Program-made: the position numbers and the translations under genes
Shown here: positions 1,033 to 26,565 of the stretch, piece after piece
Layout: each line of letters starts with the position of its first letter
Position numbering within the stretch: position 1 is the first letter of the stretch
NCBI GenBank assembly: GCA_029932795.1
Contig: JAOZPL010000001.1
Location: 1 to 26,565 of the forward strand
Direction of reading: 5' to 3'
Length of the DNA stretch: 26,565 nt
Source: Candidatus Zixiibacteriota bacterium
GTDB taxonomy: Bacteria; Zixibacteria; MSB-5A5; GN15; FEB-12
The notes under the pieces: model-generated
Told to the model about the DNA's origin: nothing
What the model saw: the letters and a program-made list of their open reading frames with translations, nothing else
Database searches by the model: none

Positions 1033-1044
1033 TTTGGGATAAAA

Positions 1045-1050
1045 TCCTTA
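1045..1050 (-). promoter_or_regulatory. Putative Shine-Dalgarno site (TAAGGA) for the downstream CDS
   Basis: The minus strand reads TAAGGA-ttttatcccaaa-ATG, a 12-nt spacer to the ATG at 1032. The spacer is somewhat long. Confidence 0.45.
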
Positions 1051-1085
1051 ACTTCTGCCCTGTTGGCTTTCTTTGCACGTTGCTC

Positions 1086-1139
1086 ATGCGCAGAGCGCTC
1101 GCCCAAAGGAGCGCATTCCCAGGCAGAGCGCAGGAGCGA
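1086..1139. repeat. Degenerate REP-like element with duplicated GCAGAGCGC
   Basis: GCAGAGCGC occurs at 1090-1098 and 1123-1131. CATTCCCAGGCAGAGCGCAGGAGCGA (1114-1139) differs at 4 of 26 positions from the intergenic palindrome CATTCCCACGCAGAGCGTGGGAACGA. I recall that palindrome from proteobacterial genomes but have not verified it. Confidence 0.35.
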
Positions 1140-1188
1140 AGCAGCAGTTCCACGCTCACATAGGAAGCTGTCCGAGAATACGTTTTCA

Positions 1189-1217
1189 TGTCATTTCTTT
1201 CGGAGCGAGAAATGACA
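1189..1217. repeat. Intergenic inverted repeat / REP-like hairpin
   Basis: Perfect 10-bp arms TGTCATTTCT (1189-1198) and AGAAATGACA (1208-1217) around a 9-nt loop. No U-tract follows on either strand. Confidence 0.6.
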
Positions 1218-1255
1218 ACTTGGGTTAGTTCTCAAGCAGCCTCCTATGTCGTGCC

Positions 1256-4200
1256 CTAACCTGCTGCGTCAAGGGTCAAAGTATATCCTGTGCTGAAGTT
1301 GACAAAGCCGGCTCCCCCGATCTTGATAAAGTAGGTTCCCGCTACCAGATTGTTAAGGCTCAGCGACGCCAAGCCTGCGTTTCCGGCAGCGGCGCGCAGT
1401 TCCCTGCCATGCTCGTCCATGAGTGTGAGCATCAGATCGGGCTCACTACTTTGATAGGTAAGTTGGACCATGTCCTGGGTACCACCGGATACCGGCAGAT
1501 CGAAACAGAACCAGTCCACGTCACTGCTGTTATGAATGGTCAGGCCTGAAAGTTCTGCATGTCCGGCGGTCAGGGTTACATCAGAAGCCGTGTCTCTGCT
1601 GTCGTTTTCTTCCAGGGAATCCGGCTGAGGGAGAACAACCATTCCTGATCTCGCAGTGTTATCCCCTTCAACCGGCTCGGTAGTTTCAGCAGGGGGTTTG
1701 ACCATAACCCCAAGGTAATAGCTTCCCGGCCCAATCGCTGCCAGGTCAAGCGCTTCTGTATGCGTTACATCAGCTCCAGCGTCAAGTGCGCTCATGTTCA
1801 CTGATTTCAACAAGGTGTCTGAAACAGGGTCAATCGTTGAACCAGTTGATATATAATACTCGACGGTAAATGCCTCGCTTGCTTTATCGCCAAAATTGGC
1901 GATCTTTGTTGTCACATCTATATTGCCATCGGCAACCTGGCTTTCGTCAATCTGCATCGATTCCACACCCAGGTTCGGTCCCGCTGCATCCGGTGCTGTG
2001 ATGCTCAACGTATAATCATAATGACCGCCAAGACTGCCGACGACCAGGTAATATTGCCCACCGCTCACCCCGTCGAGACTGATCTGATAGTCCCCGTCGG
2101 CTACCTTTTCCCCGTTAGCAACTGAGTTCATGTACCTGTCATAGAGACCAAGCATCAAATCGCCTTTCGAATCATCGAATGTAACTTCAATCTGATCCCC
2201 TGTGGTACCATCTCCGCTCATGCGGAATACCATCATGTCTTGATCGTATACACTGTGGAGATTGCGATCCACCGAATAGGTTCCCCTGACGACTCCAAGA
2301 TCAATAAACCAGTTGTTTGCCAGCTCTTGTGTCTCAAGACTATCCGGGGTACCCGCCACAAGTGCCTGTATCTCGCCCACATTGTCTGTCTCATTCAGCT
2401 CATCAACCTCGCTTGCGGGATCAACAACTGCACGAACTATAACCTCGGTATCCGGAGTAAAATCAGGCACGGATATTGGAACATCAATGATCAGTTTTTC
2501 TCCCGGGGCAAGAACACCAACGGTCACAGCACCAAGATTATAATCTGTACCGGCTGAGACAGCATGGAGTTCAAGCCCAAATGACCGCGCATAATCTGCA
2601 CCATAGTTGCTGACTGTGACATACGCATGAGAATTGTCAGTACCGGGAAGGAGGTCACACTCAGGTGCCAACCGAATATCTTCCACTGCAAGATTGGCTT
2701 TCTCCCGTTTTGCGCTCGTGAGCACAAGGCTGTATTCAAAACAGGCTTCATCTTGTGGAATAACCTGTAGGTAATATTGTCCGGGGCCAACGCCTTCTAA
2801 TTCAAGCGTCGCCAGCCCCGCTGTTGGATCTACATCTGCCTCTTGCACAATCCAACCTTCGTTATCCAACAGGTAAAGGTTAATGCTGCCGGCTTCATCT
2901 GCTCGTTTTAGCTGAACCGCATCTTCAGCAGTTCCGGTCTCACCGAGCTGGAAGGCAAAGACATCTGCATCCCGCATAGAGGCCAGGTTCAGGGCAGGGA
3001 GCTCGATATCATCCACCATGCCGCCCAGGTCAAAGGCTTCATAGATGTTCTGATTTGACTCGCACCTATCTGGAGGCAGTACAATTTCAATCGGGTAGAG
3101 TGCCTCGTTGTCAGATCGTATCGCTTCGCTCACGTTCTCCCGGCGGTCTGCAATAAACCCGAAATAGACAGGGCCGACAACTGTTTCCGGCAGAGCAATG
3201 CTGAAGGTCTCACTCCATGTTTCTCCAGACTCAAGCGCCGGAACCATGAAGGCAAACAATGTCCCATCTCCAGGATCAAGCTTGTCATCCCGACTCCAGA
3301 CCAGGGCAGATTCTGCTTCAGGAGAAGCAGTATTTCCTGCATTGGTCACTGTCAGCGTGAGATCCACTACCTGGCCGGGTAGTATGGCAGCAAGACCGCT
3401 GTCACTGTCAATGGAGGCAACCAGGGCTGCCTTTGAAGACTGCGGTGCTGTGAGCGAAACCGTGTAGCCAACACCGAGCTCTTCGTTGCCTTCAACCACC
3501 AGAACGTATTCACCTGCCGGCAAGCCGCCGAGGTCTATTTCACCAGTGGATTGATCCGCAAACACCAGCTCACGCAGGGTACTGCCGGAGACATCAATCA
3601 ACCGGGCCTCTACATCTGGATTAGTAACATCAAACAGGACTTCAATCTTGTCGGACTCACCTGCTGATTCAATCGTTCGGAACCGGTAGTAATCCCGGTC
3701 ATTGATGTCGGTCAATGTCATAGATTCAACGGTAGAGGTGCCGGCGACAACTCCCAGATCTGTTGCGGTTACAAGAGAGTTGTTGTCGGTTCCGTCATCA
3801 TACTGATCAGGTATGGCCATGGTCCCTCGGTTTGGTGGAATTTTCGGAGGCCATACATCATAAGGCCCGGTGAAGACATTATCCGTTTTGAAAACAACCT
3901 GCTCCCAAACATCCTGCTTGAAGAATTCCCAGAGTTCATAGCTTTGCAGCTTAAGAGAAATGTTCATTGGGAACTGAATCTGAGGATTTAAGGGTGATGT
4001 CATGTAAGGCCACGTAACGGCGATACCCAGCGCCGCTTCAGCCGTGCCGATGACTCCCGCTACTCCAAATGCCAGATTGGCTTTCCCGACAACCCCGACT
4101 GTGCCCTCGATTGTCAACTTAAATTCCTTGAACATAGTCTGGAGAGCATTATTGTTGACCTTCATGCCCGTTGTCGTCTCCGTCTTCAACTGGTAACCAA

Positions 4201-7200
4201 GCTCAACGCCTGCGGCAAATTGAACAACTGCTCCAAAAGGTGGCAGATTATAGAAATAGTTCCATTTCTGAGGGTATGTAGTAGTAAGGCCGACGGACAT
4301 CTCTCCCTGGCGCAGATTCAGGTCTTTATCTATAATGAATGGTTGCGAGGTAATGGAAAAGGTATATGAGGGCTCATCATCTGGTTCCCATCCTGTGGTT
4401 CCCGGCTTACTCCAGCTATAATCCTTATTCTCGTCGCTTTGAAGGAATTTCCAGATCCCACTCAACCCCGGATTGCTTCCTGCAAACTCCCGGACCTCAC
4501 TGTAAAAATTCGCAATCGAGGACACATTAATCTCATATTTTGTCACCCCCATCGCATTCAGAAGTGCCTGGGCTGGGATATTCAATTGAAAAACATTAAA
4601 GCCGAAGAGTTCGAGGCGGAGCGTCGGTCCGGCGTCCTGGTAGATCACCTCATTTTCCAGATTAAAGGCAAAATGGAGATGCATACCCAGCTTGATGCCG
4701 TTATCCTTGCCAGCTAAAAACAGAACGCTTGCCGGTATCTTTTCATGCCATTTCCGCATAATGTTAATCGCTTCCACCCAGTAAGCGTTCATCTTGTCGT
4801 TCCAGGTAATCCTTCGTTCCTCATCAGGATTACCCTGATGTTTTTCAGGATTTATCCAGTCCGGCATCTTGAACGTGTGGATGATGTAAGTCGCCTGGGC
4901 AACTACCTCGCTGTGGTTTGAAACTTTGTATGTGAGTTCCGTCCCGTCTGGAATCGTTCCCATGTCAAGCGTGAAACGATACAGGTTATTTTGGGCGGCT
5001 ACTTTCTCCGCCTTGATCTCCGCGTTTCCCAGCCATGCTTTGACTTCCGTGGTGTTTGTGACAATCTCATCCCTGAGTCGCAATTCAAATACATTATCAA
5101 GTTTCACCCCCCGGATATATCTTCCAAATTCAAAATCAAGCGGATCTGCATCATATTTGGCCGTCAAGAGGGCGGTCCTGATCTGGAAGAAGGTCGTGTT
5201 ATTGCTTTCGGTGTATTCTTCGAACTGGTTGTCTGGATCCAGTTTGACGATGTACCAGGTTTGCTCCCTCGCAGGGAGTCCTTCCATGAATGGCAGGTCC
5301 ACCGTGTGTTTGCCCGGGCCAAGCTTATCACCGCGTAGTGTCCATGTATGTAAGGATTCTTTGAAGAGAGCGGCATCGAGGTCGGGTCCGTCTGCCTTCC
5401 AGAGTTCAAGGTTAAGGGGCTGATCCGGAAATTTACCTGTAACCATGTAGGTAAGATGAATCATCGGGTAAGAAAACATTTTGTTACCCTTTTCCAGGTA
5501 AGTGACCGACCGGGCGATAAAATCTGTTGGCGCATCAGGGCTGGCGGCGATCCCTGAAGGGTGAGTGCCCGCTTCGATAATACCCTTTTCAAGGCTTATT
5601 CCGTTCTCATTAGCAAAGCGGTCAACGGACCTATCAATCTTCTGGCCTTTGGATACGTAATATGTTTGCATCGCTTCGGCGGCCTTCACAAGGTCATCGA
5701 TGTTGTAGTAGACAACCTGGTTCAGCCCTTTAAAAGAAGCCATGATATACATGTTGAGAGGATCGACAGTAATCTCGTCAGGCCAACTTCGCGGAAATTC
5801 CCTGGTTGCACCAATCAGCTTGGCTTTTCGGGGTTCCAGAGGATCGCGGATAATCCCAATGTTTCCGCCGTGATCAAGATACGGATCACGAGAGAAGTCG
5901 GTATCACCATTGAAGGTACAGTTACCGACCACAAAAGCGTACTTGTAATCCTTTGTAAATGCAATCGACTCAATATTGTTGATGTCAAAGTAATTCTTGG
6001 CATTCCAGGTTTCCCTGATCTTCAGTTCCAACCCCGTCATCCATATCGGGTAGAAGGTGTTAACCAACTGGTGCGTCATGGATGTTTCCAGTGTTTCAAC
6101 CCCGCGGTTCACAAGCTTGCGGATCTCCTTGGCGCGCTCAAAATCCATGGCAACATGATGGGATTCTCTGCCAGAGCAAAGATCCACCACCAGCATGCCC
6201 TTGCCGTCATGCCCACGGACAGCAACAGCGACCTGGTCAGGATCATTGCCAGCCGTAACTCCATAAGGCTTAAAACCCGCATCAATTCTGTCGAATTTCA
6301 TTGAAGCAGGTCCAAGAATCCTGCCGTAATAGAGATAGCCAGGCTTGTCAGAAGAGAAACCAAAGTCGCCGCCGTACCAGTGTGATTTCGCACCGGGACT
6401 GGCCACTGCAAGCCACCTCAGCTTCGTTGTTTCATCTGCTTTTGTGATGGCAATCCCGGTAAGACCGGTAATAGTGTTCTCATAAGGCTTCCCCGTCACA
6501 TCGACGCTTCCCAAATAGGAGAAGTTATCATCTTTGGTTTCAACCATGTAAACCCATGGTCCGGCTCGATCGGTTATGTAGCAGATACCGGTATCCTGAT
6601 CGACCGCCATAAACCACGGTTGCGCTTGGGCATTGCCGAGCTTGATCCGGTTCATGCCCTGAGTGGACGGCCGAGCTGGGTCATCGGGAATCGTATCGAT
6701 TTCACGGAGTCCCAGGGCATCGATGACTGAAATCGTTCCCTCGCCGCTGTTCGAGACAAAAACCCTCAATCCGTCAGGGCTTACAACAAGGTCAGAGGGC
6801 CCTTTGCCCACGGGGATAGTCTTAATAACCTGTGGTCTGTCCTTGGCAGCCGGATCGATGACCGAGACAGTGTTTGAATGGATATTAGCCACCCAAATAA
6901 AGCTGGGTACTTCGATGTCCGGACTCACGGCATAACTCGAGATCCACTTGTTTATCGTGCGGGGGTCCTTGCCGGGAGAAAATTCATACCGTTGTACAAG
7001 AAGTTCAACCTTTACCCAGATCTTCCCTAAGGGCAGGCTCTCGGGGACAGAAACCTGTATAGTGTTGTCCTTTAATTGCACATCATCCACGATGTAGCGG
7101 TCGCCTGGACGGAGGAAGCAATCCTGCAGGCAGACCAGGTCCCTCCTGGGATAGAGATTCACATGAAGGAGGCTGGGGTCGTCTCCGAAGTGCATCCCCT

Positions 7201-22200: not shown

Positions 22201-25200
22201 TTTCTGTTCTCGTGTAAGAGTTGCCAGCATTGAGGTCTTCGGGATTGGTAAAGCTGGCAATCAATGCGGCGCCATCTAACAAGCCGTCCAGAGAAAGATA
22301 AAGGCGATCCGTCCAGCAGGCATGGGCGCCAGCGGTACCAGTATTTTCGACGGTCCAGGACAGGATTGCAGGCTGGCCGACAACAATAGCTGCCGGAATG
22401 TTTAGCTCAGTCACCTTCAGGTCGGGAACCTCCGACTGGGTGACCGAAACCTGGCCGATACTTTTTCCGACATTGTTACCTTCAGCCGCAGGTTCATCGA
22501 CATTGTTATATACATCCGTTTTTGCCAATACCCAGTATGTGCCGCTCGTGACATCAAGAGGCAAGAGGTCTTCCGGCAAGGTAACAGTTTTTGCTGCGCC
22601 GTAGCTTTCCTGTGATCCCAAAACGCCGGTGTGCAAAAAGGTGCCCAGGTTCAGATCACTCTCGTCCAATGTGTCGTCGGTGGAAAGATAAAGAGTATCA
22701 TACCATGTTGAGCACTGTGTGGTAGCAGTGCCAAAATTGGTAACACGCCAGGCAACATCGACCGATCCCCCCGTCTGAGCGGTCTCAGGTACCGTTACCG
22801 CATCCACTATCAGGTCGGCGGGCGGCACGGCATATTGAACCTCAATGGGGCCTTCAAAGCTATTGTCGGTCTCGTCGCTTTCAGCTACCTGATTCCAGAC
22901 ATCCACCTGAACGAAGAGCTTGTAATCACCAACGACCCCCCATGGGACGTTCAAGCTCACGGTTCGATCAAGACTTTCCCCCGCTGCAAGTGGATCGCTC
23001 TGGGAAATTCTTCCGATCTCAATATCGTCATAATTCCCAACATACTCATCGGATGAAAGTATTGCGCGCTCATACCAGGGAGCATCGGCCGTTGATGACC
23101 CCTCATTTGTCACCGTCCAGGAGACAACAAGGTCTTGGCCATTTGAAATTACAGATGGGTTTGATGTAACGGTGAGATTCAAATCGGGTGCGTTGAGGGT
23201 CATCACCTGAACAAAGGTATTATTTTCTTCGTCAGCCTCTAACTGATACTTGTAATAATCCGCAGCCACAATAATATGCCAGGTCCCCGTCAGCCCCCCG
23301 GGAATAGTAACCGAGTCATCCACCGTGTAGCTTGCCCCGGCATCAAGGCCCCCTTTGTGGAAGACTGACTTCAAAGTTCGGTCGCCGGAGTCAAGTACGT
23401 CATCTGAAGACAGGAACACGACATCATACCAGCGCGCAGTTGCCTTGCCTTGCCCGTCATTTGTCACCGTCCATGAAAGGGCAAGTCCTTTTCCTGCCGC
23501 AGCAGAGGTGGGAATGGCGGCGTTAAGAGCCAGATCGGCGGCCTTGATATCAATGGAAACAGCAGTGATGTTGTTGTCATTATCCGCCTCACTCTGACGA
23601 TTGTAGGCATCGGTGCGAAAGAGGAGATACTTTGTCCCTGTGCCTATCGTCTTTGGAATCGGAGATACCGCAGTTACAGGCTTGGTGACGCTGTATGTTC
23701 CGCCTGCAGCAAGGCCGCCTTCGTTTTTCCAGTATTCGGAGGCAAGGAGAGTGTCGTCGGAATCGTAGATTTCATCTGCAGACAGGAAGACCATGTCCCA
23801 CCAGTTGGAAGTTGCGGTGCCGCTGCCGGTATTTGTCACTGTCCAGTCAAGTGAAATCAGCTCACCCCAGGAAGCGGAATCAGGGGCGGTTGTAGCGGTC
23901 ACCTGGAGATCGGCGGCATTAAAGGTTACTTCTCTTGCAAGGAGATTATTCGTCTCGACTGCTTCTACCTGATTGTCTGAGGCGTCTGTGACAAAAAGGA
24001 AATAAGCCGATCCGGTAAGTCCCGCCGGAAGGGTGACCTCTTTTTCAATGGTATAGTCTGTGGCCGGGTCTAAAGGAGAATACTCTCCGGCGTAAACGGA
24101 GACCACCAGGATATCGGTAGAGGTGTCGAGTGCCTCATCACTTGACAGATAAACCCGATCATACCATGTGGCCGCCGCAGCTCCCGCGCCCTGATTTGTT
24201 ACAGTCCACGATATGGCGGCGCGCTCCCCCCAACTTGCCGTTTCAGGGGCTGTTGCCGCGGTTACCTGGAGGTCCGGATTGCTGATTGTGACCGATACGA
24301 CCTCTGTGTTGTTACCGGTGCTGGTTTCACCCTGGACATCATCGCCGTTGACGACGAAAATGAGGTACCTCGTGCCGATACCGGACTCAGGAAGTCGAAC
24401 CTTGCGGCTGGCCGAATAACTTGCGTCAACTGGCAGCGGTGTCTGGCTGTCAATCCGCTCACTCAAAAGGAGTTGCTCGCTGCCGTCAAGCGAATCTGTA
24501 TCCGAGATATAAACCCTGTCGTACCAGTCGGCGTAGGCGGGGCTGGAACCGATATTCGTCACCGTCCATGCCAGATCAACAGTTTGCCCGACCGCTGCCG
24601 CCACCGGGGCAGAAACCGCGGTAATTTCCAGGTCGGGCGGCTCGTGAATAGTAATAGGTATGGCCGGACCGACATTATTGTCATCACTTGCTTCTCCCTG
24701 GACCTTTCCCCCATCGGCAACAACAAGCAAATAATTGTAGGCAGTCGCACAGTTGGGAAGCGTTACCTGTCTGGTTACGGTATAACTTTCACCAGAAAGA
24801 AGCGGAACTTCGTCGGCGGTGCTGAACGAAGTCACCAGTTCATCATCTCCGGTCAGCCCATCGTCATAGGAGAGATAGATATAGTCATACCAACGGGCAT
24901 TGGCGGCGCCATCGCCCGAGTTTTTTACAGTCCAGGTGACATCGATCGCCTGCTGGACGGATGCCTCTGCGGGTGCGGTAGCTTCGGTAACCGTCAGATC
25001 GGGAATCTCAATAGTGATGGCATCAGATCGGAGGAAATTGTTTTCTTCCTCTGATTCACCCTGATTCTGGCTGCCGTCAGCCATAACGAACAGGTACCAG
25101 GTACCCACAGAAACGTTTGGAACCGTGACATTTCGGGTAACCGTGTAACTCGCACCGGCATCGAGGGGGGTGAATGCCTCCACGTTTTCGGAGGCGACAA

Positions 25201-26565
25201 AAACGTCAGTGCCTGGATTGAAGTTAGTATCTGCTGACAGGTAAATGTAATCATACCAGTCGGCCGGCGCCTCGACCGTGTCGCTGTTGTTCCGCACAGT
25301 CCAGCTTATCTCGATCGATTCGCTGGGAGACGCCGATTCCGGGGCTATTACCGCCGTCACTTCGAGGTCGGGAACAGAAACGGTGATTGGGCCACCTGCC
25401 TTAAAGTTGTTGGTTTCGTCGGACTCACCCTGCTGGTTGAACTCATCAGTAACAACAATGATATGATATGTCCCGGCGGCGACGGCAGGAAGGCGCACAC
25501 CACGGATGCTTGAGTAGAAATCGTCTGAAGTCAGGGGGACACAGTCCGAGGCGCTGAAATAATCGATTCTGGTGTCTACAGAGGAATCAAACTGGTCGTC
25601 GGATGAGAGGTATATTGCATCGCTCCATGGACTGAGCGCGGCAGAGTTTCCGGTATTGACTACTTTCCAGGAAACCTGAATCTGCTGGGAAGAGACTGCA
25701 GTGGTCGGGACCGTGACCCTTTCCACCTGCAGATCCGGGGCGGTCAGGGTAATTGCCGCGGCAACAACATTGTTGGTCTCATCGGTTTCACCCTGATTGC
25801 CTGAACCGTCCGCTTTGAAGATCAGGAAGGCGTTCTGCCCTTGCCAAGTGGAAGGAACCGTGATTGTTGCGGTCTCGGTGTAATCCCCGGCTGCAGCAAG
25901 AGGAGTCTTGTCCCCGACATACTCGCTGCGCAGCAGGTTGTCACCAGGATCAACTACATTGTCTTGAGAAATGTAGATATAGTCGTACCAGTCGGCGGCT
26001 GCCTCTTCAGTTCCCTGGTTGGTGACGGTCCAGGAAACGGAGACAGTTTCCCCCAGAATGGCAGTGGTAGGTGCAGTGACATTTCCCTCGGCAATCGCCA
26101 GGTCCGGTGCGGTGAGAGTGATAGGATGCGATTTTACGTTATTTTGTTCATCGGTTTCCCCCTGGTAACCCGAGCCATCCGCGACAAACAGCAAATAGCG
26201 GTCACCTGTTGCTGTCTCCGGCAGGAAGATATCATGTGCCAGTGTGTATTCATCGTTCTGATGCATCGGGCTTTGAGCGGGGGCATAAAATGAGGCTAAA
26301 AGCGTATCTTCCTCATCCAGGATCGTGTCATCAGAGACATAAACCTTGTCGTACCAATGCGTAGTAGTATCGTATTGGCCTATATTTTCGACGGTCCAGG
26401 ATACCGAAATCGTCTGGCCAAGAACCCCGGTGGCCGGGGAATCGACACCGGTAACACAAAGATCCGGCGCGTTCAGCGTGATCTGCAAGGTGGCCATGTT
26501 GTTCGTATCATCCGTCTCGGCCTGGTAATTGGAGTAGTCAGCAACGAAAAGGAGATACTTGGTCC
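1256..26565 (-). CDS. Giant multidomain extracellular/surface protein (CARDB, He_PIG, partial RHS/YD, dockerin, ZU5-like, beta-propeller and PPC domains); 5'-partial, at least 8,435 aa
   Basis: The ORF track gives 8,413 aa without a stop from 26497 to TAG at 1256-1258. The same frame stays open to the window edge and adds TKYLLFVADYSNYQAETDDTNN before the Met. That peptide is the C-terminal end of another CARDB repeat (compare RYLLFVADGSGYQGETDEQNN in repeat 1), so the true start lies outside the window. Confidence 0.97.
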   Translation of the reverse strand, partial: TKYLLFVADYSNYQAETDDTNNMATLQITLNAPDLCVTGVDSPATGVLGQTISVSWTVENIGQYDTTTHWYDKVYVSDDTILDEEDTLLASFYAPAQSPMHQNDEYTLAHDIFLPETATGDRYLLFVADGSGYQGETDEQNNVKSHPITLTAPDLAIAEGNVTAPTTAILGETVSVSWTVTNQGTEEAAADWYDYIYISQDNVVDPGDNLLRSEYVGDKTPLAAAGDYTETATITVPSTWQGQNAFLIFKADGSGNQGETDETNNVVAAAITLTAPDLQVERVTVPTTAVSSQQIQVSWKVVNTGNSAALSPWSDAIYLSSDDQFDSSVDTRIDYFSASDCVPLTSDDFYSSIRGVRLPAVAAGTYHIIVVTDEFNQQGESDETNNFKAGGPITVSVPDLEVTAVIAPESASPSESIEISWTVRNNSDTVEAPADWYDYIYLSADTNFNPGTDVFVASENVEAFTPLDAGASYTVTRNVTVPNVSVGTWYLFVMADGSQNQGESEEENNFLRSDAITIEIPDLTVTEATAPAEASVQQAIDVTWTVKNSGDGAANARWYDYIYLSYDDGLTGDDELVTSFSTADEVPLLSGESYTVTRQVTLPNCATAYNYLLVVADGGKVQGEASDDNNVGPAIPITIHEPPDLEITAVSAPVAAAVGQTVDLAWTVTNIGSSPAYADWYDRVYISDTDSLDGSEQLLLSERIDSQTPLPVDASYSASRKVRLPESGIGTRYLIFVVNGDDVQGETSTGNNTEVVSVTISNPDLQVTAATAPETASWGERAAISWTVTNQGAGAAAATWYDRVYLSSDEALDTSTDILVVSVYAGEYSPLDPATDYTIEKEVTLPAGLTGSAYFLFVTDASDNQVEAVETNNLLAREVTFNAADLQVTATTAPDSASWGELISLDWTVTNTGSGTATSNWWDMVFLSADEIYDSDDTLLASEYWKNEGGLAAGGTYSVTKPVTAVSPIPKTIGTGTKYLLFRTDAYNRQSEADNDNNITAVSIDIKAADLALNAAIPTSAAAGKGLALSWTVTNDGQGKATARWYDVVFLSSDDVLDSGDRTLKSVFHKGGLDAGASYTVDDSVTIPGGLTGTWHIIVAADYYKYQLEADEENNTFVQVMTLNAPDLNLTVTSNPSVISNGQDLVVSWTVTNEGSSTADAPWYERAILSSDEYVGNYDDIEIGRISQSDPLAAGESLDRTVSLNVPWGVVGDYKLFVQVDVWNQVAESDETDNSFEGPIEVQYAVPPADLIVDAVTVPETAQTGGSVDVAWRVTNFGTATTQCSTWYDTLYLSTDDTLDESDLNLGTFLHTGVLGSQESYGAAKTVTLPEDLLPLDVTSGTYWVLAKTDVYNNVDEPAAEGNNVGKSIGQVSVTQSEVPDLKVTELNIPAAIVVGQPAILSWTVENTGTAGAHACWTDRLYLSLDGLLDGAALIASFTNPEDLNAGNSYTRTETITIPLLADGSYKFLVVTDANTEVYERAGEENNIGVSGDVALQHPDLTVGSVTAVSTAESGTSFEVSWSVKNSGTGPTPSGWTEKIYLSTDELLDESDIILGEHAHTGTLSSGESYNGSVNVTLPNGITGTYYILVKPDAADIVVEGSGLEDDICASDPIDVTLAPYADLAVSTITTNGQDITEGVKLIIGDPADLTVSWTVSNEGNGTGPVTAWTDKIILSRDDTLGNGDDVEIGSFGNPGPVPAGESYTQTKIIQLAAATQGRFTLFVVTDADDVVYEHDDTGANSATPGYLLDITPRPYADLVVDSVDAPQTATTGTPMTLSWTVRNKGIGQTSVPEWYDYVYMSSNADGSGWKLIDRFSRVGNLGVGACYTRTVQITVPVDLDITQTTDIDQYFFVKTGGPYEFIYGDNNTTASSAVSVTYTVAPRSDLEILSIDAPDNASDGDAIDVTWKVKNNGPDTAEGPWTDAVFIAPGGDRSQAVRIGTFSISLGLGAGLSYTRTENFRLPKHITGVYEIFVRPDVEGKIIDPDLTNNDDLSDSITIQLHDRPDLQVTSMDIPETVNAGAVVDVYWVVSNLGQVKTPTGGSRWYDGVYLSLDNKLDPGDMRLGWERNGSALTVSEQYSSSGHYRIPQAAQGPMYILVKVDASDSVDEYPAEANNVLARPININVQAVPPPDLVVSDVHGPTEAFDGTQVTVYYRVTNKGAGITYPACWTDSLWLTADKTKPGGDTDFRIGSASHTGALEVGEFYEGTITGTIPEHIRGVYELMVYTDAWGQVFELTFDVNINPDDPTAVDNNNFKTADKPLTILYTPPADLEVTNIDAPETALGGEKVTISWTVVNNGSNVTDLDRWADAIYVSKDEAGQDKTLVFAVLHEGAMERGQSYTQHLDFTLPPSASGSYFIVETNVDPNIVLTDEDELLLEMAAVTDRIAEKIGDLETMTPAQVYAKIDTLSKSELRYILWGEDEVEVRKVWEGPFTENNDRAIPSTVIPVPADLQVTSVTVPETADSGEEVKISWTVTNIGDYPVYKGTERWTDYIYVSPDPTFIFSRAQYVGSVVHVRDEPMNPQDSYAASTTMNLPLGSEGRRYIYVFSDRDPAAEAWCGRIDGISESEFPGWPTDFKNRVFEGDPNRKKLNNVNSAAMQVIYREPDLKVLEGSMEIPESANSGQTIDISWTVTNAGTRATRGEFWLDRIYISQDSSIDLYDMLIGETRHHGVLDIGENYDISTTVRLPDDIEGDFHLLVYIDSPYGVHEYFRSALPYPETSGYHRIQAPWPANEWTLMGQVKEFQDEANNIIDHSISVTLVDSPDLQVKSVSFTGNEDAQEGHAITGRRFDVSYTVTNASVGDVPDRQNKWSDYIFLSRDEFLDVNSDHYLGQVFHDGALASGESYSVDMTFNVPRGILGPYYVFVLTDVPNKIHPYGFVYEGANENNNAAPSSVPMIIDLAPPTDLMVEEITVPETGEVSEPITVTYTVKNVTTNNEHAKGYWADSLYISADAVWDLGDKLIGRVELEPDPDNPGKMRPIFRDLAPDESYTGSLTGILPAVLPGDYRIIVRTDIFDDINEGANDANNKLASSDTLNVSVGTLQLDVDFKDTFTVGRERLYEITVPSGETLEVSLVADDKTIANELYVRYEGLPDSIHYDAAFEGHLWSDQVARVPLTEAGTYYILVRSAGWQDAARKLDPDAEPITCGITVKARLLPFGIRDVRPETGGDSRYVTLEVLGARFSDSAIVKLIRPQIAEYEAISYEIVNATRIIATFDLTDAPHGLYDVQVTNPDGQTARMPYRYLVEEAKPLDLTVGMGGPGELEYGDVGWYGIGVYSLTNVDAPYVHFEFSVPHIFNDTDWYEYVQTKMSDDEEWYSGDEEVWPVGDRLIFRTNLAGEPEIADVPWAELDSILNLDGTLMAPGFTFDFINRGYMGLTFTADVYPEMRDILAKDPNALKDLHDPNVDPQWPYEAFAYKFAIAAAATPMTSEEYVSYQLGLAEQYRRAILDDPFAPRVLIEAAADAEQWGNLYLSGLEDSGQLRPEDVPPDIHTLPPISSLMSIVTAGLLGIDTGNEIIEEGNLVDFFALVRKWYGHDEDARVAPGTMPDAADFDMGLSHETHFESFWVQVGLGIREDKAPVEEPHLRDFFGLTGERSDAVRIVGPTGYGPQNFVPADTYLPYTIKFENPATGKEAVKQIQIMQQLDENLDVRSFTLGDITLGDIQVHLPEYRASFSGDFDFVDERGFVLRVTAGVDVVSRIAIWTFNALDPQTGELISDPDKGLLLPNTDRAQWGGVTYSIKPWPEYTEGIDLTTGTEIKASARITYDGGTPLDTNIQTATLDMIPPTTSYSVQDLGVGKTGSRSYRITFEATDDPDGSGVKDYTVYISQDGGSWWAWKRRITDTEAEYTAPVGATAEFIVLAADNAGNVEKAPEGVYLPAYNPGINLGVAPTAAQLTPEHNLTTVTPPDVPATNPLFVQAMKQIPAGVSGGSPPAFASVFDPFTMSAFATGIPQSGAGIGSLGIAFSPDGSSVYVSGGEGRNQIWRFTAAGGAADSPLAALDVPVYDMVFDQTGRLWATTGGGPLLRLDPVTGQILGRYGDGIELGIAVHPDSGLLYLATSTGVEIFDPGTEQFSSFSSTRVHSLAFSPEGTLYATSWPEDGNVLRFDKRGNAEILLIPAAPGIGIAVGQAETPLENLMFITHGDAGFLTMVDLVTLKSVKIADGGTRGGFMHIGTSGRLYVAQGGQVDVFFPITPPVVLATTPVNGMSVLPVVNHADIRFDVDMWSVSADDAQSVTNPDNYRLVNKTTDRRITISRADYDPVKRTVTLQFEPLEAALYELTILPNVRSALGLALPEAYTVDFTVMVDVTDSLKPNFSNTRFDRKSENISFDVSFTNSLDFDILPPYRLIFTGLAGTTATLKDADGTTDQGYPYCELSGADSEKLAPGESTITLTLSVHNPDHLAFDLITLVNVDVGANLPPIISSTPGENAQVDQEYFYSVSASDPEQSNISFLLVEGPRGATMDAETGALCWTPGEDSPSTVQFEVRVFDERGGFASQKWDVDVTGVNSPPVILPIPDQQITEGDLLELCVGASDPDGDQILYWAENLPPGALFDSEAKILRWQTDGRSAGHYSDVRIYAGDGISSTFRSFEITVANRNEPPFLAQPMERTIQEGQYLEIQLQARDADKDKLAFSAKGLPRSAYLNPQTGLFSWRPNYDEHGEYEIEFAVSDPWSTTQQRVTIHVLNVNGPVSFEPVDRWETYEGQSLVIHIAANDPDNPLGIGMMLDDGTVDADLLLPQLSWDYSTLPEGATFNTDTQIFRWTPAFDQAGTYNIDFTVTDDGDGTGIPTTDSVTLNIVVRDANAVPVIEPIENRSLEVHEGEENILEMTIRATDADGTIPAISASGLPSFVTFTDNGDGTATLRAAPTLTAQRGDYEIKVTASDDGNGDPRAVLTGEASFILSVVAPNARPVMERQVPRVALVGKETSFEVLVSDLDEDPLTYSATGLPSGATFDSTVIYGKALFSWTPTSEDAGKTYHITLTVTDSGNGEEVRALSDSQSFDITVRDTNSSPVLMPVGTRQVSEQDELAFTLQADDPDGDSVSYRVLGLPRGAAFDNLTGDFVWRPTYEQSGTYNLRFEATDGAGTSAEDVKIIVENTNRPPTFVPIRDMLTFEGTTIQLTVMAGDLDNDALSYSVATVLPAGAAFDPDTQIFYWTPGFDQAGTYTIRFMAQDSGGLSDYYDAKIEVLNVNQAPEIDHMSGHVLLVDQPFEMRVPGRDADTGTTLSYSAENLPAGAALDAETGVFSWTPGATQVGKHDVRFTVSDGELSCSQSVQLVVSFTPIEPSLTIELTPSFPVIAGQSVLIHPIADSVADIETLTVSVDGKPLSFDRYGRASFIPENPGHFLVTATAVDADGQTVVVHSDLKVRDAADSQAPKIKLFAPGDGAVLSSATDCIGTISDNNLDYWRLELAPLGAGQFSAIASGQGAVKKGLLAQLDPQKIKNGAYELRLTARDIGGRTSIVSRIIEMNSAAKTGEFTNSRTDLSVTLGSISLDLTRTYSSLAGEGAGIFGYGWSFLGMELSPTTNLRPTGAEERGLFSGYRQNTRLYVMLPDGSSAGFTFTPHIYEQTGVTYYSPAWTPDEGIDWQLETSGAALELARGIFYERGTGLPYNPANAMHFGEDAFMLTSPDGTAYTYGADGMLRGIRTAQANLIVTNAGIFASDGHLTFQRDEAGRITVITAPDGGQIRYSYDSGGALISVNDLGNGHRTWYGYDNSGMHLLTAVVDPDGPSSLRINYSGTGELVGTDSIDLVIGSTRDAIAGAQNGEITAGQSRRFAFLLTDDELNAASSGFVTLGVLVTGSGGFSPALPVIDGAAAQQQALETDRSFAMFTLAAAGLHIIEVSGVDETTSGEYELELFIAGDVNGDGLVDGTDTTLFETAFGSSSGDASYETGADVNRDGTINDTDRYYLETNFCFTANRPPQLSPGSATTYPEIPISIDLAELATDPDGSFLYFVISNVSGGTVHLAGDGHTVSFTPQAGYTGDAGFEFLADDGTSRSDFAKFTVTISDAFLVGLKLRESEAVLNLDAGESSRLILYGAFSDGGVMPLPVGYALWHSQNDTVAVVDATGNVWARAEGSTAIVVSKEGTSFHTAAAVRVGDLEQPADYDIYPDRYVMEPGSTRQVIFGVVDEAGNRIDMATASAGTTYTSSDDAIATVTADGLITAVGEAGQATTIIVINGAIRQELSISIEAAALSGDTVGDQGGIIKNGDEIHVYIPPETLTGQQVTIETIDQSSLPYNSPGGFQFVQAFELDLQNADLSNPLGMAVPAPDGATQGDVLFVFRAGKLITGPGQSVDRWELVDRAEVDASGLAHTGSPPYGGGQSEGTYLFCMDKDHANMKVVSIYPDMIVEVMAGGQSYLVYPNAVFDNIFPVPLTTTKIRVWRLAEDGTATMAALPVPSLNKGDIFEVNVDVDDPEPQDYSPVIERASLQVGESPTITIQGMHFGDDPSLLHVNLYPRRDLVCLQDCFLRPGDRYIVDDVQLKDNTIQVSVPESLPLGKIWVKVELLVQRYEFSPGKDPRTINKWISSYAVSPDIEVPSFIWVANIHSNTVSVIDPAAKDRPQVIKTIPVGKGPSDLVVSPDGLRVFVSNSGEGTISVIDALGLREIDTIPDDPARPSTQGMNRIKLGNAQAQPWFMAVDQDTGICYITDRAGPWVYMVETKDDNFSYLGSVDVTGKPYENTITGLTGIAITKADETTKLRWLAVASPGAKSHWYGGDFGFSSDKPGYLYYGRILGPASMKFDRIDAGFKPYGVTAGNDPDQVAVAVRGHDGKGMLVVDLCSGRESHHVAMDFERAKEIRKLVNRGVETLETSMTHQLVNTFYPIWMTGLELKIRETWNAKNYFDINNIESIAFTKDYKYAFVVGNCTFNGDTDFSRDPYLDHGGNIGIIRDPLEPRKAKLIGATREFPRSWPDEITVDPLNMYIMASFKGLNQVVYYNIDDLVKAAEAMQTYYVSKGQKIDRSVDRFANENGISLEKGIIEAGTHPSGIAASPDAPTDFIARSVTYLEKGNKMFSYPMIHLTYMVTGKFPDQPLNLELWKADGPDLDAALFKESLHTWTLRGDKLGPGKHTVDLPFMEGLPAREQTWYIVKLDPDNQFEEYTESNNTTFFQIRTALLTAKYDADPLDFEFGRYIRGVKLDNVFELRLRDEIVTNTTEVKAWLGNAEIKAEKVAAQNNLYRFTLDMGTIPDGTELTYKVSNHSEVVAQATYIIHTFKMPDWINPEKHQGNPDEERRITWNDKMNAYWVEAINIMRKWHEKIPASVLFLAGKDNGIKLGMHLHFAFNLENEVIYQDAGPTLRLELFGFNVFQLNIPAQALLNAMGVTKYEINVSSIANFYSEVREFAGSNPGLSGIWKFLQSDENKDYSWSKPGTTGWEPDDEPSYTFSITSQPFIIDKDLNLRQGEMSVGLTTTYPQKWNYFYNLPPFGAVVQFAAGVELGYQLKTETTTGMKVNNNALQTMFKEFKLTIEGTVGVVGKANLAFGVAGVIGTAEAALGIAVTWPYMTSPLNPQIQFPMNISLKLQSYELWEFFKQDVWEQVVFKTDNVFTGPYDVWPPKIPPNRGTMAIPDQYDDGTDNNSLVTATDLGVVAGTSTVESMTLTDINDRDYYRFRTIESAGESDKIEVLFDVTNPDVEARLIDVSGSTLRELVFADQSTGEIDLGGLPAGEYVLVVEGNEELGVGYTVSLTAPQSSKAALVASIDSDSGLAAILPGQVVDLTLTVTNAGNTASPEAESALVWSRDDKLDPGDGTLFAFMVPALESGETWSETFSIALPETVVGPVYFGFIADRRENVSEAIRSDNEALYPIEIVLPPDRCESNQNIYEAFDLGGMVDDIELPALNLASMRDADVFAFQLGETGTAEDAVQLKRADEAGSINLYLLDNEGWIVQEADVDPTAGLATLELEGVGPGQYYLQVIPQDEACFEYSLVLTSAKREKANLAVEDIRLAPECDLLPGTDNSHAYVTVSNYGADYARSFGLELHAVSAGTDYNLGAVTVGVLAPGEKLIIDVPISVPDFTPDTEVIVRAVVDPASEVDELNETDNVGEIQALVAGTPDSLETQELANNWFIDLGVVRGTYSVDRNLHSVYDQDMMVFRMSGDGTTGDQIEVTFDDSKGDLMLGLYDRYMNSVANGEKVADGDYQISLDGVSGGQYYLVVGSLGGHYDYTLSITAPDAAGPNLGVESMQIDESQVADGNIDVTTKIANFGDKASEAFTVEYYISTGSTIDPVSDTLLKSVNMSALDAGADVTHTEALDLAAIGPGSYYLGVMVKPPAETTEPVEGDNTARSGMVVLPQPDSLEENDSRDTASDVTLTAGHAELSGLTIHNSSDVDWFCFDLPVSGGTQDMVQLTYQSSEPDLMLTLMDEHGRELRAAAGNAGLASLSLNNLVAGTYFIKIGGAGFVNFSTGYTLTLDAAG
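1259..3811 (-). repeat. C-terminal alternating (PPC-CARDB)x3-PPC tail
   Basis: PPC-like units start PDQYD (3811), PDRCE (3073), PDSLE (2347) and PDSLEE (1624). Each has D-x-D-x-[YFM]-x-F...D/N-[LV]-x-L...G-x-Y-x-L/I-x-V...Y-x-L-x-L. CARDB units between them end in SEAIRSDN, VDELNETDN and TEPVEGDN. Confidence 0.85.
5537..6900 (-). other. YVTN-type beta-propeller with insertions
   Basis: WVANIHSNTVSVID...IKTIPVGKGPSDLVVSPDGLRVFVSNSGEGTISVID is a canonical YVTN repeat. It closes with IEAGTHPSGIAASP. Confidence 0.8.
6915..7260 (-). other. IPT/TIG-like domain
   Basis: PVIERASL...ITIQGMHFG...NTIQVSVPESLPLG-x-IWVKV. Confidence 0.55.
7532..7925 (-). other. ZU5-like domain
   Basis: VGDQGGIIKNGDEIHVYIPPETL...VTIE...LSNPLGMAVPAP resembles the ZU5 N-terminal GG-x-x-x-x-x-x-x-x-x-IP-x-x-AL pattern. 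Confidence 0.55.
7955..8775 (-). other. Big_9 (cadherin-like) domain followed by two Big_2 domains
   Basis: NRPPQL...ATDPDG...VSFTPQAGYTGDAGFEFLADDG; then WHSQNDTVAVVDATGNVWARAEGSTAIVV and YTSSDDAIATVTADGLITAVG. Confidence 0.8.
8786..8947 (-). other. Type I dockerin-like domain
   Basis: Two duplicated Ca-binding loops, GDVNGDGLVDGTD and ADVNRDGTINDTD, each followed by a short helix. Confidence 0.85.
9344..10114 (-). other. RHS entry module (DUF6531-like, FGYGW) with a short YD-repeat stretch and no RHS core
   Basis: TDLSVTLGSISLDLTRTYSS...GIFGYGWSF (FGYGW at 9989-10003), VMLPDG, then LTSPDGTAYTYGADGML, RDEAGRITVITAPDGGQIRYSYDSGGALISV, TWYGYDNSGMHLLTAVVDPDG. Confidence 0.8.
10700..13291 (-). 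repeat. Nine He_PIG (putative Ig / dystroglycan cadherin-like) repeats
   Basis: Units begin NLPP, NSPP, NEPP, NGPV, NAVP, NARP, NSSP, NRPP and NQAP. Each has A-x-D-x-D-x-D...LP-x-GA-x-FD...F-x-W-x-P...G-x-Y...V-x-D. Confidence 0.9.
13630..13965 (-). other. Big_5 / SbsA-type Ig-like domain
   Basis: PPVVLATTPVNG...IRFDVDM...SVTNPDNYRL...VTLQFEPLEAALYELTILPNVRSALGLAL...YTVDFT. Confidence 0.7.
13967..14670 (-). other. Six-bladed NHL/SMP-30-like beta-propeller
   Basis: Six blade motifs: GIAFSPDGSSVYVS, DMVFDQTGRLWAT, GIAVHPDSGLLYLA, SLAFSPEGTLYAT, GIAVGQAE..LMFIT, FMHIGTSGRLYVA. Confidence 0.75.
14930..15199 (-). other. FN3/Ig-like domain
   Basis: DMIPPTTS...ITFEATDDPDGSGVKDYTVYISQDGG...EFIVLAADNAGNVE. 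Confidence 0.6.
15200..15750 (-). other. DUF7619-like domain
   Basis: IVGPTGYG...LPYTIKFENP...IQIMQQLDENLDVRSFTLG...VTYSIKP...TGTEIKASARITYD resembles the YTI-x-F-x-N...LD-x-x-LD family. Confidence 0.55.
16810..17090 (-). other. IPT/TIG-like Ig domain
   Basis: IRDVRPETGG...VTLEVLGARF...GLYDVQVTNPDGQTA is a typical IPT-type pattern. Confidence 0.65.
17160..17430 (-). other. PPC (bacterial pre-peptidase C-terminal)-like domain
   Basis: RLYEITVPSGETLEVSL...NELYVRYEGLP...EAGTYYILVRS matches the PPC pattern. Confidence 0.7.
17432..26565 (-). repeat. Tandem CARDB (Ig-like) array: 23 complete repeats plus one partial repeat at the window edge
   Basis: The motif [AP]DL-x-V...P...G...V-x-WTV-x-N-x-G...W-x-D-x-x-YLS-x-D...L...G-x-SY...LP...G-x-Y...D...E-x-x-E-x-NN recurs about every 115-180 aa. 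Counted by hand from APDLCV (26470) to NNKLASSDTLNVSV (17432). Confidence 0.92.

Follow-up and report, generated by a model that had tools for sequence, protein, structure and literature searches.

A predicted giant extracellular protein of the LEPR-XLL class in a Zixibacteria metagenome-assembled genome: a conserved backbone, a precise junction and alternative end cassettes

Introduction

Bacterial ZU5 domains have been described upstream of β-propellers and RHS repeats, and also in large surface proteins bearing enzymes (Zhang et al. 2012, PMC3482391). Giant RTX adhesins, including LapA, MpIBP, FrhA and the Aeromonas RTX adhesin, are type I-secreted proteins of megadalton size (PMC12077191, PMC6650083), and an attachment role has been proposed for the giants of Omnitrophota, which comprise "archaeovorins" and dockerin/TSP3-type proteins (West-Roberts et al. 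2023, 10.1101/2023.11.21.568195). This study investigated a giant gene that combines modules of these kinds. The gene occupies most of a 26,565-bp stretch of DNA, hereafter the window, which is the whole of contig C38 (JAOZPL010000001.1) in a Zixibacteria metagenome-assembled genome (MAG; GCA_029932795.1), and it is accompanied in the window by the start of a gene for a smaller partner protein.

In metagenome bins, giant genes tend to be fragmented or overlooked, and the LEPR-8K class has so far been no more than a label in databases. The window is best explained as encoding ~84% of a giant, roughly 10,000-amino acid (aa) extracellular protein of this LEPR-XLL ("LEPR-8K") class, whose host comes from hydrothermal and marine sediment. 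The family to which it belongs, with a fixed backbone, a junction, a cassette and a detachable C-terminal module, constitutes a subset of the LEPR-XLL giants for which we found no description in the literature searched; the same search returned no account of the junction and cassette organisation, of the fission of the partner or of the barrel-like core described below.

Results

The window encodes most of a giant protein

We identified a single frame on the minus strand of the window with 8,435 open codons and 8,413 aa counted from its first ATG at position 26497, from which the residues of the giant protein (P0001) are numbered. An earlier interpretation of the same DNA made without database searches, the sequence-only reading, had described one frame of more than 25 kb and more than 8,400 aa; this was borne out, and orthologues indicate a protein that is longer still (~10,000 aa). 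The stretch preceding the first ATG forms the last part of a further CARDB repeat, and the gene is therefore truncated where the contig stops. Window position 26557 aligned, at 60% identity, with residue ~1,632 of the upstream frame of the orthologue in a Syntrophales MAG (G001; locus on a 2.47-Mb contig), and therefore ~1,600 residues are lacking and the full protein would comprise roughly 10,000 aa.

The N-termini of the orthologues in G001 and in a Desulfobacterales MAG (G002; a 10,766-aa frame) matched the NCBIfam model NF012209 (LEPR-XLL, "LEPR-8K") with 29.1 and 23.4 bits (cut-off, 17). These orthologues indicate that the N-terminus of the window gene, outside the contig, would be the LEPR-XLL motif. 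No hydrophobic signal was present at the N-termini of these two giants, in which the maximal 12-aa hydropathy was 1.0-1.2, compared with 2.7-3.3 in the partner proteins.

The host MAG comprises 2.16 Mb in 345 contigs and is 86.6% complete, and its RpoB is 72-80% identical to the RpoB of many Zixibacteria MAGs. Its second-longest contig, C92, consists of one 6,771-aa frame open at both ends, a second and unrelated giant gene with ~30 RTX nonapeptide blocks, FG-GAP repeats, two PA14 domains, a GLEYA domain and four proprotein-convertase P-domains. C92 was considered as the upstream part of the window gene and ruled out, since its architecture (RTX/FG-GAP/PA14/P-domain) differs. Contig C30 (1-6960) carries a 2,321-aa 5'-open frame with VRP1, ABC_toxin_N and neuraminidase-like domains, resembling a TcA-like component of an ABC toxin.

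A fixed backbone is shared across phyla

The order of domains was determined with Pfam and an iterative in-house hidden Markov model (HMM), and the coordinates are collected in Table 1. From the N-terminal side, the backbone comprises a CARDB array, a PPC (pre-peptidase C-terminal) domain, a largely family-less region, propeller 1, nine He_PIG repeats, a short RHS entry, a dockerin, immunoglobulin (Ig)-like domains, a ZU5 module and propeller 2. A word-indexed search with residues 5400-7600 retrieved six giant homologues of 4,994-7,596 aa, including proteins from Bradyrhizobium (P0004) and Pirellulaceae. Residues 1230-6937 aligned with one of the homologues (P0003) in a single collinear high-scoring segment pair of 5,886 columns at 35% identity. 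The landmark residues had nearly identical spacing in every relative, and therefore the number of domains is fixed. These comparisons identify residues 1230-6937 as the fixed-architecture, ~5,700-residue backbone of a widespread family. Both arrays that the sequence-only reading had described as stalks were present (23 complete CARDB repeats plus copies in the tail, and nine He_PIG repeats); the constant spacing among relatives contradicts a stalk of freely varying copy number.

We scanned species-representative genomes for the signature LWATTGGG[PA] of propeller 1. The results revealed relatives in at least 219 genomes from six or more phyla, and the domain combination thus defines a family and is not unique to the window. 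Members were found in Planctomycetota, Verrucomicrobiota, Lentisphaerota, Cyanobacteria (Calothrix, Nostoc, Trichormus), Desulfobacterota (Syntrophales and Desulfobacterales, with 70% identity in the propeller 1 module) and Alphaproteobacteria (Sphingobium, Sphingopyxis, Novosphingobium, Bradyrhizobium), and in one Alcaligenaceae MAG. Nearly all of the 80 loci examined among the 219 had a single open frame across the full 20.8-kb stretch; orthologous frames reached 10,766 and at least 11,648 aa. In Calothrix sp. NIES-4105, the member is one annotated coding sequence (CDS) of 34,794 nt (11.6k aa) on the complete mobilizable plasmid3 (AP018293.1).

A tree of backbone residues 5440-6320 from 48 sequences, computed with FastTree, placed the Zixibacteria copy as sister to the Desulfobacterales copy (support, 99), followed by the Syntrophales and then the Opitutales copies (support, 100). 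Phyla were mixed elsewhere in the tree as well, which indicates that whole giant genes have been transferred between phyla. Calothrix plasmid3 was typed as MOBP and has several reverse-transcriptase genes ~10 kb downstream of the giant gene; such a plasmid may be a vehicle for moving giant genes.

All modules called in the sequence-only reading were recovered. The two propellers gave weak Pfam matches and are strongly conserved, propeller 1 having a mean column identity of 63% in alignment A2; Big_5 and Ig domains lie between it and the He_PIG array. The dockerin scored well above its cut-off, and its loop residues were invariant in alignment A1. All seven sequences of that alignment retained the RHS entry, which consists of DUF6531, one RHS repeat and two YD motifs. 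The RHS core motif PxxxxDPxG was not found by regular expression in the 8,413 residues of the giant protein, and neither Pfam nor NCBIfam scans detected a toxin family in it. The RHS module had been called abortive, and the same state is kept throughout the family; this "cap without shell" belongs to the invariant parts of the backbone. The unassigned β-rich region and the PPC-CARDB tail were likewise present. In the family-less region (residues 3112-3900), the sole family match was a borderline one to DUF7619 (26.8 bits; cut-off, 27; 33.4 bits within a larger scanned segment). This segment of ~790 aa is conserved in relatives and contains, by eye, a helical stretch that is unusual in an otherwise all-β protein.

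The ZU5-like call was confirmed by fold. In a Foldseek search with the AlphaFold2 model of residues 6185-6425, built from an alignment of 32 sequences, the top 15 matches in the PDB were all ankyrin ZU5 domains (probability, 1.0; TM, 0.52-0.56, single-domain normalised), UNC5b appeared lower down, and a profile search gave a weak match to ankyrin-2. The equivalent of the ZU5 autoproteolysis site reads A-[R/H]-T-x-S-P-P, with Arg in 22 and His in 8 of the 32 sequences, and the single Cys near this site is not conserved. A C-terminal CxH motif has been cited for ZU5 cleavage (PMC3482391). The alignment shows that neither the canonical H-F-S nor the CxH chemistry is conserved; cleavage by another chemistry is possible. 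The same publication is the closest published description of the ZU5-propeller-cassette end.

Independent assemblies support the frame

We considered whether the giant gene was a misassembly of separate genes, a chance-open frame or a decaying pseudogene. Such an artefact might be expected from the fragmented state of the MAG (345 contigs), the end of the window contig inside repeats, and the orthologue in G001, which is broken into frames of 3,840 aa and 6,562 aa with an 8-nt overlap within a CARDB repeat. The split in G001, at positions 890-897 of its locus, may be a long-read frameshift error or a genuine disruption. However, near-identical sequence was found in at least 19 metagenome runs from hydrothermal vents and marine sediments belonging to more than 12 studies. 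In a run from another study with ~75x depth, a 14,858-bp contig covered window positions 1-14369 at ~99.4% identity without joints, taking in the partner gene, the gap, the tail, the cassette, the junction, the ZU5 module, the dockerin and the RHS entry. A second contig of the same run (17,551 bp) extended without joints from position 14371 past position 20000 and reaches ~5 kb further than the end of the window. Relative to these independent contigs, the only insertions or deletions were two 3-nt in-frame insertions, both in the partner gene. A blastn search revealed no internal DNA repeats in the window and nothing similar elsewhere in the genome. In finished or long contigs, orthologues remained collinear across more than 5,000 residues; one of them is the annotated 34.8-kb CDS on the complete Calothrix plasmid. 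On these grounds we regard an artefact of any of these kinds as highly improbable. The sequence-only reading had named a chimeric assembly as the finding that would overturn it; as far as public data allow, the joint-free independent contigs, the repeat-free DNA and the collinear orthologues argue against such an assembly, and we rejected it.

A conserved junction is followed by alternative cassettes

In the six giant homologues, collinearity with the window protein stopped at residue ~6,937 or earlier, and exactly there in four; across loci, it mostly ended at residues ~6,935-6,985. The alignments thus place a conserved junction at residue ~6,938, just past the ZU5 module and propeller 2, after which one of about four cassette types follows. 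The kinds were hydrolase-like, a full RHS array, a long-β type and that of the window itself (type C). Clustering of the 520 residues after the junction yielded four main clusters plus singletons. Type A (21 members) occurs in sphingomonads, cyanobacteria and three of the giant homologues (P0003, P0005, P0006), and a GxSxG motif was read by eye in P0003 and P0005. The slot of some relatives holds a hydrolase-like module with a metzincin-like motif, all Pfam metzincin matches being weak and below cut-offs. Type B (13 members) is that of homologue P0008. Type C (10 members) comprises the window and members from Syntrophales, Desulfobacterales, Opitutales, Phycisphaeraceae, Limisphaerales, Verrucomicrobiales, Tepidisphaeraceae and Victivallales. 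Type D (6 members) has true RHS repeats at its start (54.9 bits), forming arrays of ~1,640-1,860 aa in frames of 11,126 and 11,283 aa. The Calothrix member carries a DNA/RNA non-specific endonuclease (Endonuclease_NS, 126.6 bits) ~770 residues past the junction, and the cassette of the Bradyrhizobium homologue gave a weak murein-endopeptidase-like match.

That the slot after the junction holds functionally different modules supports the distinct "payload" position proposed in the sequence-only reading, with the qualification that the module of the window itself, a membrane-type β-barrel in the model, may just as well serve as an anchor. Mapped on the backbone tree, the cassette label changed five times (minimum, 4; shuffled mean, 26); the exceptions were type D, nested in type C, and two cases between types A and B. 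Because the changes are so few, the cassettes are old, define subfamilies and are rarely replaced. A freely recombining polymorphic cassette, of the kind found at the tips of classical polymorphic toxins, was rejected on this result.

The core of the type C cassette is modelled as a β-barrel

The core of the cassette in the window is rare. A search with residues 7150-7570 returned nine matches at E<=0.001 among 1.84 billion representative proteins, and eight of the nine were in proteins longer than 1,000 aa. By sequence, the core had no match in Pfam, NCBIfam or a PDB profile search, and a feature search of the ESM Atlas failed too. We then modelled residues 6939-7570 with AlphaFold2 from 12 sequences, obtaining a mean predicted local distance difference test (pLDDT) score of 72, with 80-92 at model residues 50-390. 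In the model, a CARDB domain and an Ig-like sandwich are followed by a core of antiparallel strands of 17-27 residues.

A Foldseek search with the whole 632-residue cassette model gave generic multi-Ig matches only. In an exhaustive structural comparison of model residues 381-632, the best match was CymA (Z, 9.9; 175 residues; root-mean-square deviation, 3.2 Å), the next being the autotransporter β-domains of BrkA, NalP, Hbp and EspP (Z, 8.6-9.2); OmpT and ScrY were also matched. The ESM Atlas returned barrels of TonB-dependent receptors, and AFDB returned autotransporter β-domain proteins. The core strands alternate, with one face 70% hydrophobic and the other 74% polar, small or charged. These results are mutually consistent and derive from a single model of moderate confidence. 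With moderate confidence, an outer-membrane-type β-barrel is the best current reading of the modelled core.

The identity of the core to G001 was ~27%, compared with 55-60% for the backbone. The core thus evolves much faster than the backbone, which suggests an interaction surface under diversifying pressure. In G001, G002 and a third orthologous genome, G003, conservation of the type C cassette and the tail extended as far as the final residue (36-42% identity over residues 7440-8413). The giant was examined as a cargo of the type IX secretion system (T9SS) and rejected as such: the last 214 residues matched TIGR04183 with 17.6 bits (cut-off, 23), and the match overlaps a PPC domain, of which the tail has four copies.

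The G+C content was 0.465-0.50 over window positions 3600-6300 (core and junction), compared with 0.52-0.56 in the backbone. This dip could reflect amino-acid composition or a different origin; the difference is too small to serve as an argument for a foreign origin of the cassette.

The partner corresponds to the C-terminal module of relatives

Residues 48-330 of the partner protein (P0002) were 29-39% identical to a segment that every one of the six giant homologues carries on the C-terminal side of its cassette. In G001 and G002, a separate partner orthologue follows the giant gene and is 42-43% identical to P0002, signal peptide included; these complete orthologues are 861 and 1,965 aa long and contain Big_9/cadherin as well as PKD repeats. 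In G003, the partner module is fused in frame ~280 residues past the PPC tail. Because the homologous segment lies within the giant polypeptide of relatives, the partner is a detached module of the family. The comparison identifies it as the usual C-terminal module, fused in most relatives and separate with a signal peptide here and in the two Desulfobacterota, a split seen in part of the type C subfamily. The sequence-only reading had proposed an exported partner; a secreted Ig protein is indeed encoded, but it is the split-off C-terminal module of the family and not an independent partner.

The N-terminal domain of ~170 aa in the partner had no Pfam or PDB sequence match. Language-model features offer a lead only, a resemblance to CBM_4_9, DUF642 and galactose-binding-like jelly-rolls. 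In the G001 orthologue, the C-terminal residues 804-845 gave a sub-threshold dockerin match (20.6 bits; cut-off, 22.9); should this dockerin be real, partner and giant would share one cohesin scaffold. Between the stop of the giant gene and the start of the partner gene, window positions 1196-1222 (minus strand) contain a perfect inverted repeat, GTCATTTCT ... AGAAATGAC, whose 9-bp arms are separated by a loop of 9 nt. This hairpin may mark a transcript end or be regulatory.

As the sequence-only reading had pointed out, the gene downstream of the giant is not a small immunity-like gene; it encodes a secreted multi-Ig partner here, and likewise in G001 and G002. No small immunity-type gene was found downstream in the four genomes (the window, G001, G002 and G004, the last having housekeeping genes there), and no toxin/immunity pair was recognised in the type D RHS array of G004. 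These results bear on the explanation that the giant is a contact-dependent polymorphic toxin, in which self-cleavage of the ZU5 module frees the propeller-cassette part and the barrel forms pores in the membrane of a competitor. The order ZU5-propeller-RHS is that of described polymorphic toxins (PMC3482391), the type D relatives hold an RHS array in the same slot, the Calothrix member has Endonuclease_NS there, the core is modelled as a membrane-type barrel, and the same MAG encodes the TcA-like fragment. Nevertheless, immunity-like genes are missing next to the giant here, in G001, in G002 and in the RHS-type G004, the cassettes are not recombined, the giant contains neither the RHS core motif nor a recognised toxin domain, the H-F-S-type site of ZU5 has Arg in most sequences, and 840 residues of PPC/CARDB domains follow the core. 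We therefore consider a polymorphic toxin unlikely.

Docking and export

The MAG carries at least 24 T9SS type-A sorting domains. Cohesins were detected on contigs C7 and C107 (five matches, four above the cut-off) in three proteins: one of 335 aa with one cohesin, one of 811 aa with Big_9 and a cohesin, and one of 853 aa (3' end cut) with two cohesin matches. The 335-aa and 811-aa proteins had T9SS sorting domains of 45.2 and 37.0 bits (cut-off, 23), whereas the 853-aa protein was cut by the contig end. Cohesins were also found in G001 and G002, and in only one or two of 14 control genomes was a match obtained. It is plausible, judging from these domain matches, that the giant is docked on T9SS-anchored cohesins through its dockerin. 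The "dock" of the sequence-only reading gains plausibility from the T9SS-sorted cohesins in the same genome. Some fused relatives have a dockerin and a cohesin in one polypeptide (P0006, from a precomputed PF00963 match; P0004, cohesin-like by eye), an arrangement that would permit head-to-tail self-assembly.

The cohesins are also relevant to the explanation that the giant is a purely structural matrix or sheath protein, with fibres cross-linked by dockerin-cohesin pairs and cassettes that are mere lineage decorations. The protein is highly acidic and poor in Cys (1,218 D+E compared with 507 K+R; 26 Cys in 8,413 residues), Ig-like and CARDB domains predominate, the architecture of the backbone is fixed, and the cohesin and dockerin in P0006 would allow chains to form. 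However, conserved non-repeat modules (two propellers, ZU5 and the RHS entry) and enzyme-type cassettes are difficult to explain structurally, and the core diverges faster than the backbone. A matrix role of this kind accordingly appears doubtful.

The window, with only two genes, holds no genes for an ABC exporter, a membrane-fusion protein or an outer-membrane factor, and no secretion genes flank the orthologues in G001 or G002. In Calothrix, the giant gene is followed by genes for a peptidyl-prolyl isomerase, a C39-ABC exporter and an HlyD-family protein, and the Bradyrhizobium homologue has RTX repeats (precomputed PF00353). The Calothrix exporter genes and the Bradyrhizobium RTX repeats make a type-I-like route likely for some members. 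The giant of the window was also considered as an RTX adhesin and rejected because it has no RTX repeats.

Table 1. Features of the window, with residues numbered from the ATG at position 26497 for the giant protein
Feature	Window positions	Strand	Residues	Evidence and remarks
Giant gene	1256..26565	-		5'-truncated at contig end; stop codon TAG 1256-1258; full length estimated ~10,000 aa
CARDB array	17462..26565	-	12-3012	23 complete consecutive repeats plus one cut at contig end; Pfam CARDB 493.8 bits, iterative HMM count
PPC	17165..17377	-	3041-3111	Pfam PPC 32.6 bits
Conserved, largely family-less region	14798..17164	-	3112-3900	Collinear in P0003 and P0005
Propeller 1	13958..14800	-	3900-4180	Signature LWATTGGG[PA]; weak SGL/WD40/NHL-type Pfam matches
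He_PIG array	10691..13285	-	4405-5269	9 consecutive repeats; Pfam He_PIG 266.5 bits, HMM count
Short RHS segment	9344..10114	-	~5462-5718	DUF6531 31.7 bits (5462-5505), RHS_repeat 38.3 bits (5660-5691), two YD motifs
Type I dockerin	8798..8950	-	5850-5900	Two DxNxDGxxxxxD calcium-binding loops; Dockerin_1 40.7 bits (cut-off 22.9)
Cadherin-like/Big_9 domain and two Big_2	7946..8773	-	~5909-6184	
ZU5-fold module	7223..7945	-	6185-6425	AlphaFold2 pLDDT 91.8, pTM (predicted template modelling score) 0.86; Foldseek
Linker Ig-like part and propeller 2	5684..7222	-	6426-6938	Weak YNCE/lactonase Pfam matches; conserved backbone ends here
Cassette start	4823..5683	-	6939-7225	CARDB-like domain and Ig-like sandwich; 3idu and 2l0d at Z 9.2-9.7, Ig/FN3 at Z ~9
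Cassette core	3788..4822	-	7226-7570	Rare, aromatic-rich, long amphipathic β-strands; modelled as outer-membrane-type β-barrel
C-terminal tail	1259..3700	-	7600-8413	PPC-CARDB-PPC-CARDB-PPC-CARDB-PPC
Intergenic gap	1033..1255			223 bp; a 4-bp stop/start overlap instead in G001 and G002
Partner gene (P0002)	1..1032	-		3' end cut by contig edge; signal-like N-terminus, ~170-aa jelly-roll-like domain, Big_9/cadherin (tandem-95) repeats

Discussion

The domain order and the models favour, at somewhat better than even confidence, the interpretation that the giant forms a surface fibre of megadalton size, docked via its dockerin; a ZU5-propeller adaptor would carry a head specific to the lineage, with the partner providing the binding module in trans. 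As part of this best explanation, its function would be long-range adhesion or the display of a variable functional head, not classical toxin delivery. The giant would be exported without a Sec signal, possibly by a type-I-like route by analogy with the Calothrix member, and the dockerin would hold it at the surface via cohesin proteins that the type IX system delivers to the outer membrane. The CARDB and He_PIG arms would serve as the fibre that reaches out, and the ZU5-propeller-cassette end as the working head, here a CARDB-Ig-β-barrel unit with the PPC/CARDB tail. This head would most likely insert into or bind a membrane or envelope, either that of its own cell, as a second anchor, or that of a neighbour. 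The separately secreted partner, with its carbohydrate-binding-like jelly-roll and cadherin-like repeats, would supply the binding module that relatives carry in cis.

Several observations weigh against this interpretation. The missing N-terminus was sought in the other contigs of the MAG and not found, the start of this copy lying beyond the contig. No HemolysinCabind match and no GGxGxD motif indicated RTX repeats in the giant, and a C39-type exporter of a type I secretion system was not found in the 87%-complete MAG, in which only MsbA-like ABC proteins were detected. The pairing of dockerin and cohesin is deduced from co-occurrence alone, and cohesins were not detected in G003 or G004. The catalytic motif of ZU5 is not conserved among the 32 sequences. 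The structural matches of the barrel (Z, 8.4-9.9) are just modestly above the background of the tool, in a region with a pLDDT of 55-89; the amphipathicity of the strands cannot separate a membrane barrel from a soluble one; and ~840 residues follow the barrel, unlike in an autotransporter.

The sequence-only reading had envisaged a long-reach adhesion or effector-display apparatus that reuses toxin-delivery parts. Its inventory of domains, the payload slot and the dock found support. No support was found for a stalk of free copy number, for shuffled tips, for an independent partner or for a unique combination, and the canonical autoproteolysis residues are not conserved in ZU5, the putative hinge. 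A bolder interpretation is that the family comprises undescribed, horizontally mobile "display arms", in which the conserved ZU5-propeller adaptor bears one of several heads, namely an RHS cage, a nuclease, a hydrolase or a membrane-inserting β-barrel, type C is a new, self-inserting β-barrel module and the partner is a targeting subunit acting in trans. The type C head would then punch into neighbours or anchor internally, in the manner of an autotransporter, in a protein without a Sec signal. We put this forward tentatively, as a reading that is probably not correct in full.

The analysis makes one giant gene a defined and testable family with a backbone, a precise junction, few end modules and a case of gene fission or fusion. 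Its members include cultured strains of Sphingobium, Sphingopyxis, Tundrisphaera, Calothrix and Nostoc that are amenable to genetics. The findings link parts of polymorphic toxins (ZU5, the RHS entry and the propeller) to an adhesin-like context, and they suggest a dockerin-cohesin-T9SS anchoring route in a diderm. If the core is truly a membrane barrel, it would represent a new way to attach or arm a megadalton fibre.

Among known systems, the LEPR-XLL giants (NF012209) share the extreme length (~8,000 aa or more), orthologue N-termini above the cut-off, the lack of a Sec-type signal and the occurrence in Planctomycetota, Verrucomicrobiota and other phyla. NF012209 covers just a 24-residue N-terminal motif and no architecture, and the N-terminus of the window copy is outside the contig. 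The giants of Omnitrophota likewise come from uncultured bacteria, are very large and are predicted to be extracellular, and some contain dockerin modules; they differ in their size (at least 30,000 aa), their many dockerin/TSP3 repeats or enzyme arrays, their C-terminal membrane anchors and a locus resembling a type II secretion system, and no sequence relationship was seen.

Giant RTX adhesins resemble the window protein in their megadalton size and long Ig-like extender; both have variable functional domains towards the C-terminal end and lack an N-terminal Sec signal. However, the giant has no RTX repeats and its extender consists of CARDB/He_PIG rather than BIg domains, whereas RTX adhesins lack a dockerin, ZU5 and an RHS entry. 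In autotransporters, the barrel lies at the extreme C-terminus (type Va) or at the N-terminus (type Ve) and a Sec signal is present; the barrel modelled here is internal, and the orthologue N-termini are signal-less. The resemblance to cellulosome-type assemblies lies in the canonical type I dockerin with two calcium loops and the cohesin proteins in the same genome. The host here is a diderm, its cohesins are T9SS-sorted and not anchored by surface-layer homology domains or sortase, there is no glycoside hydrolase cargo, and the pairing is predicted.

RHS/YD toxins (Rhs, TcB-TcC) have a long YD shell of hundreds to ~1,500 aa, whereas the giant has one RHS_repeat and two YD motifs in ~250 aa. 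The ZU5-propeller-RHS toxins of the TcdB/TcaC-like kind (PMC3482391) share with the giant a ZU5 domain directly upstream of a propeller and a variable module, and the type D subfamily has a full RHS array. In contrast to these toxins, the giant has no RHS shell, core motif, recognised toxin domain or immunity gene, and its ZU5 motif is not conserved; its ZU5-propeller-cassette unit instead ends a ~6,000-residue adhesin-like backbone and bears cassettes that are not shuffled.

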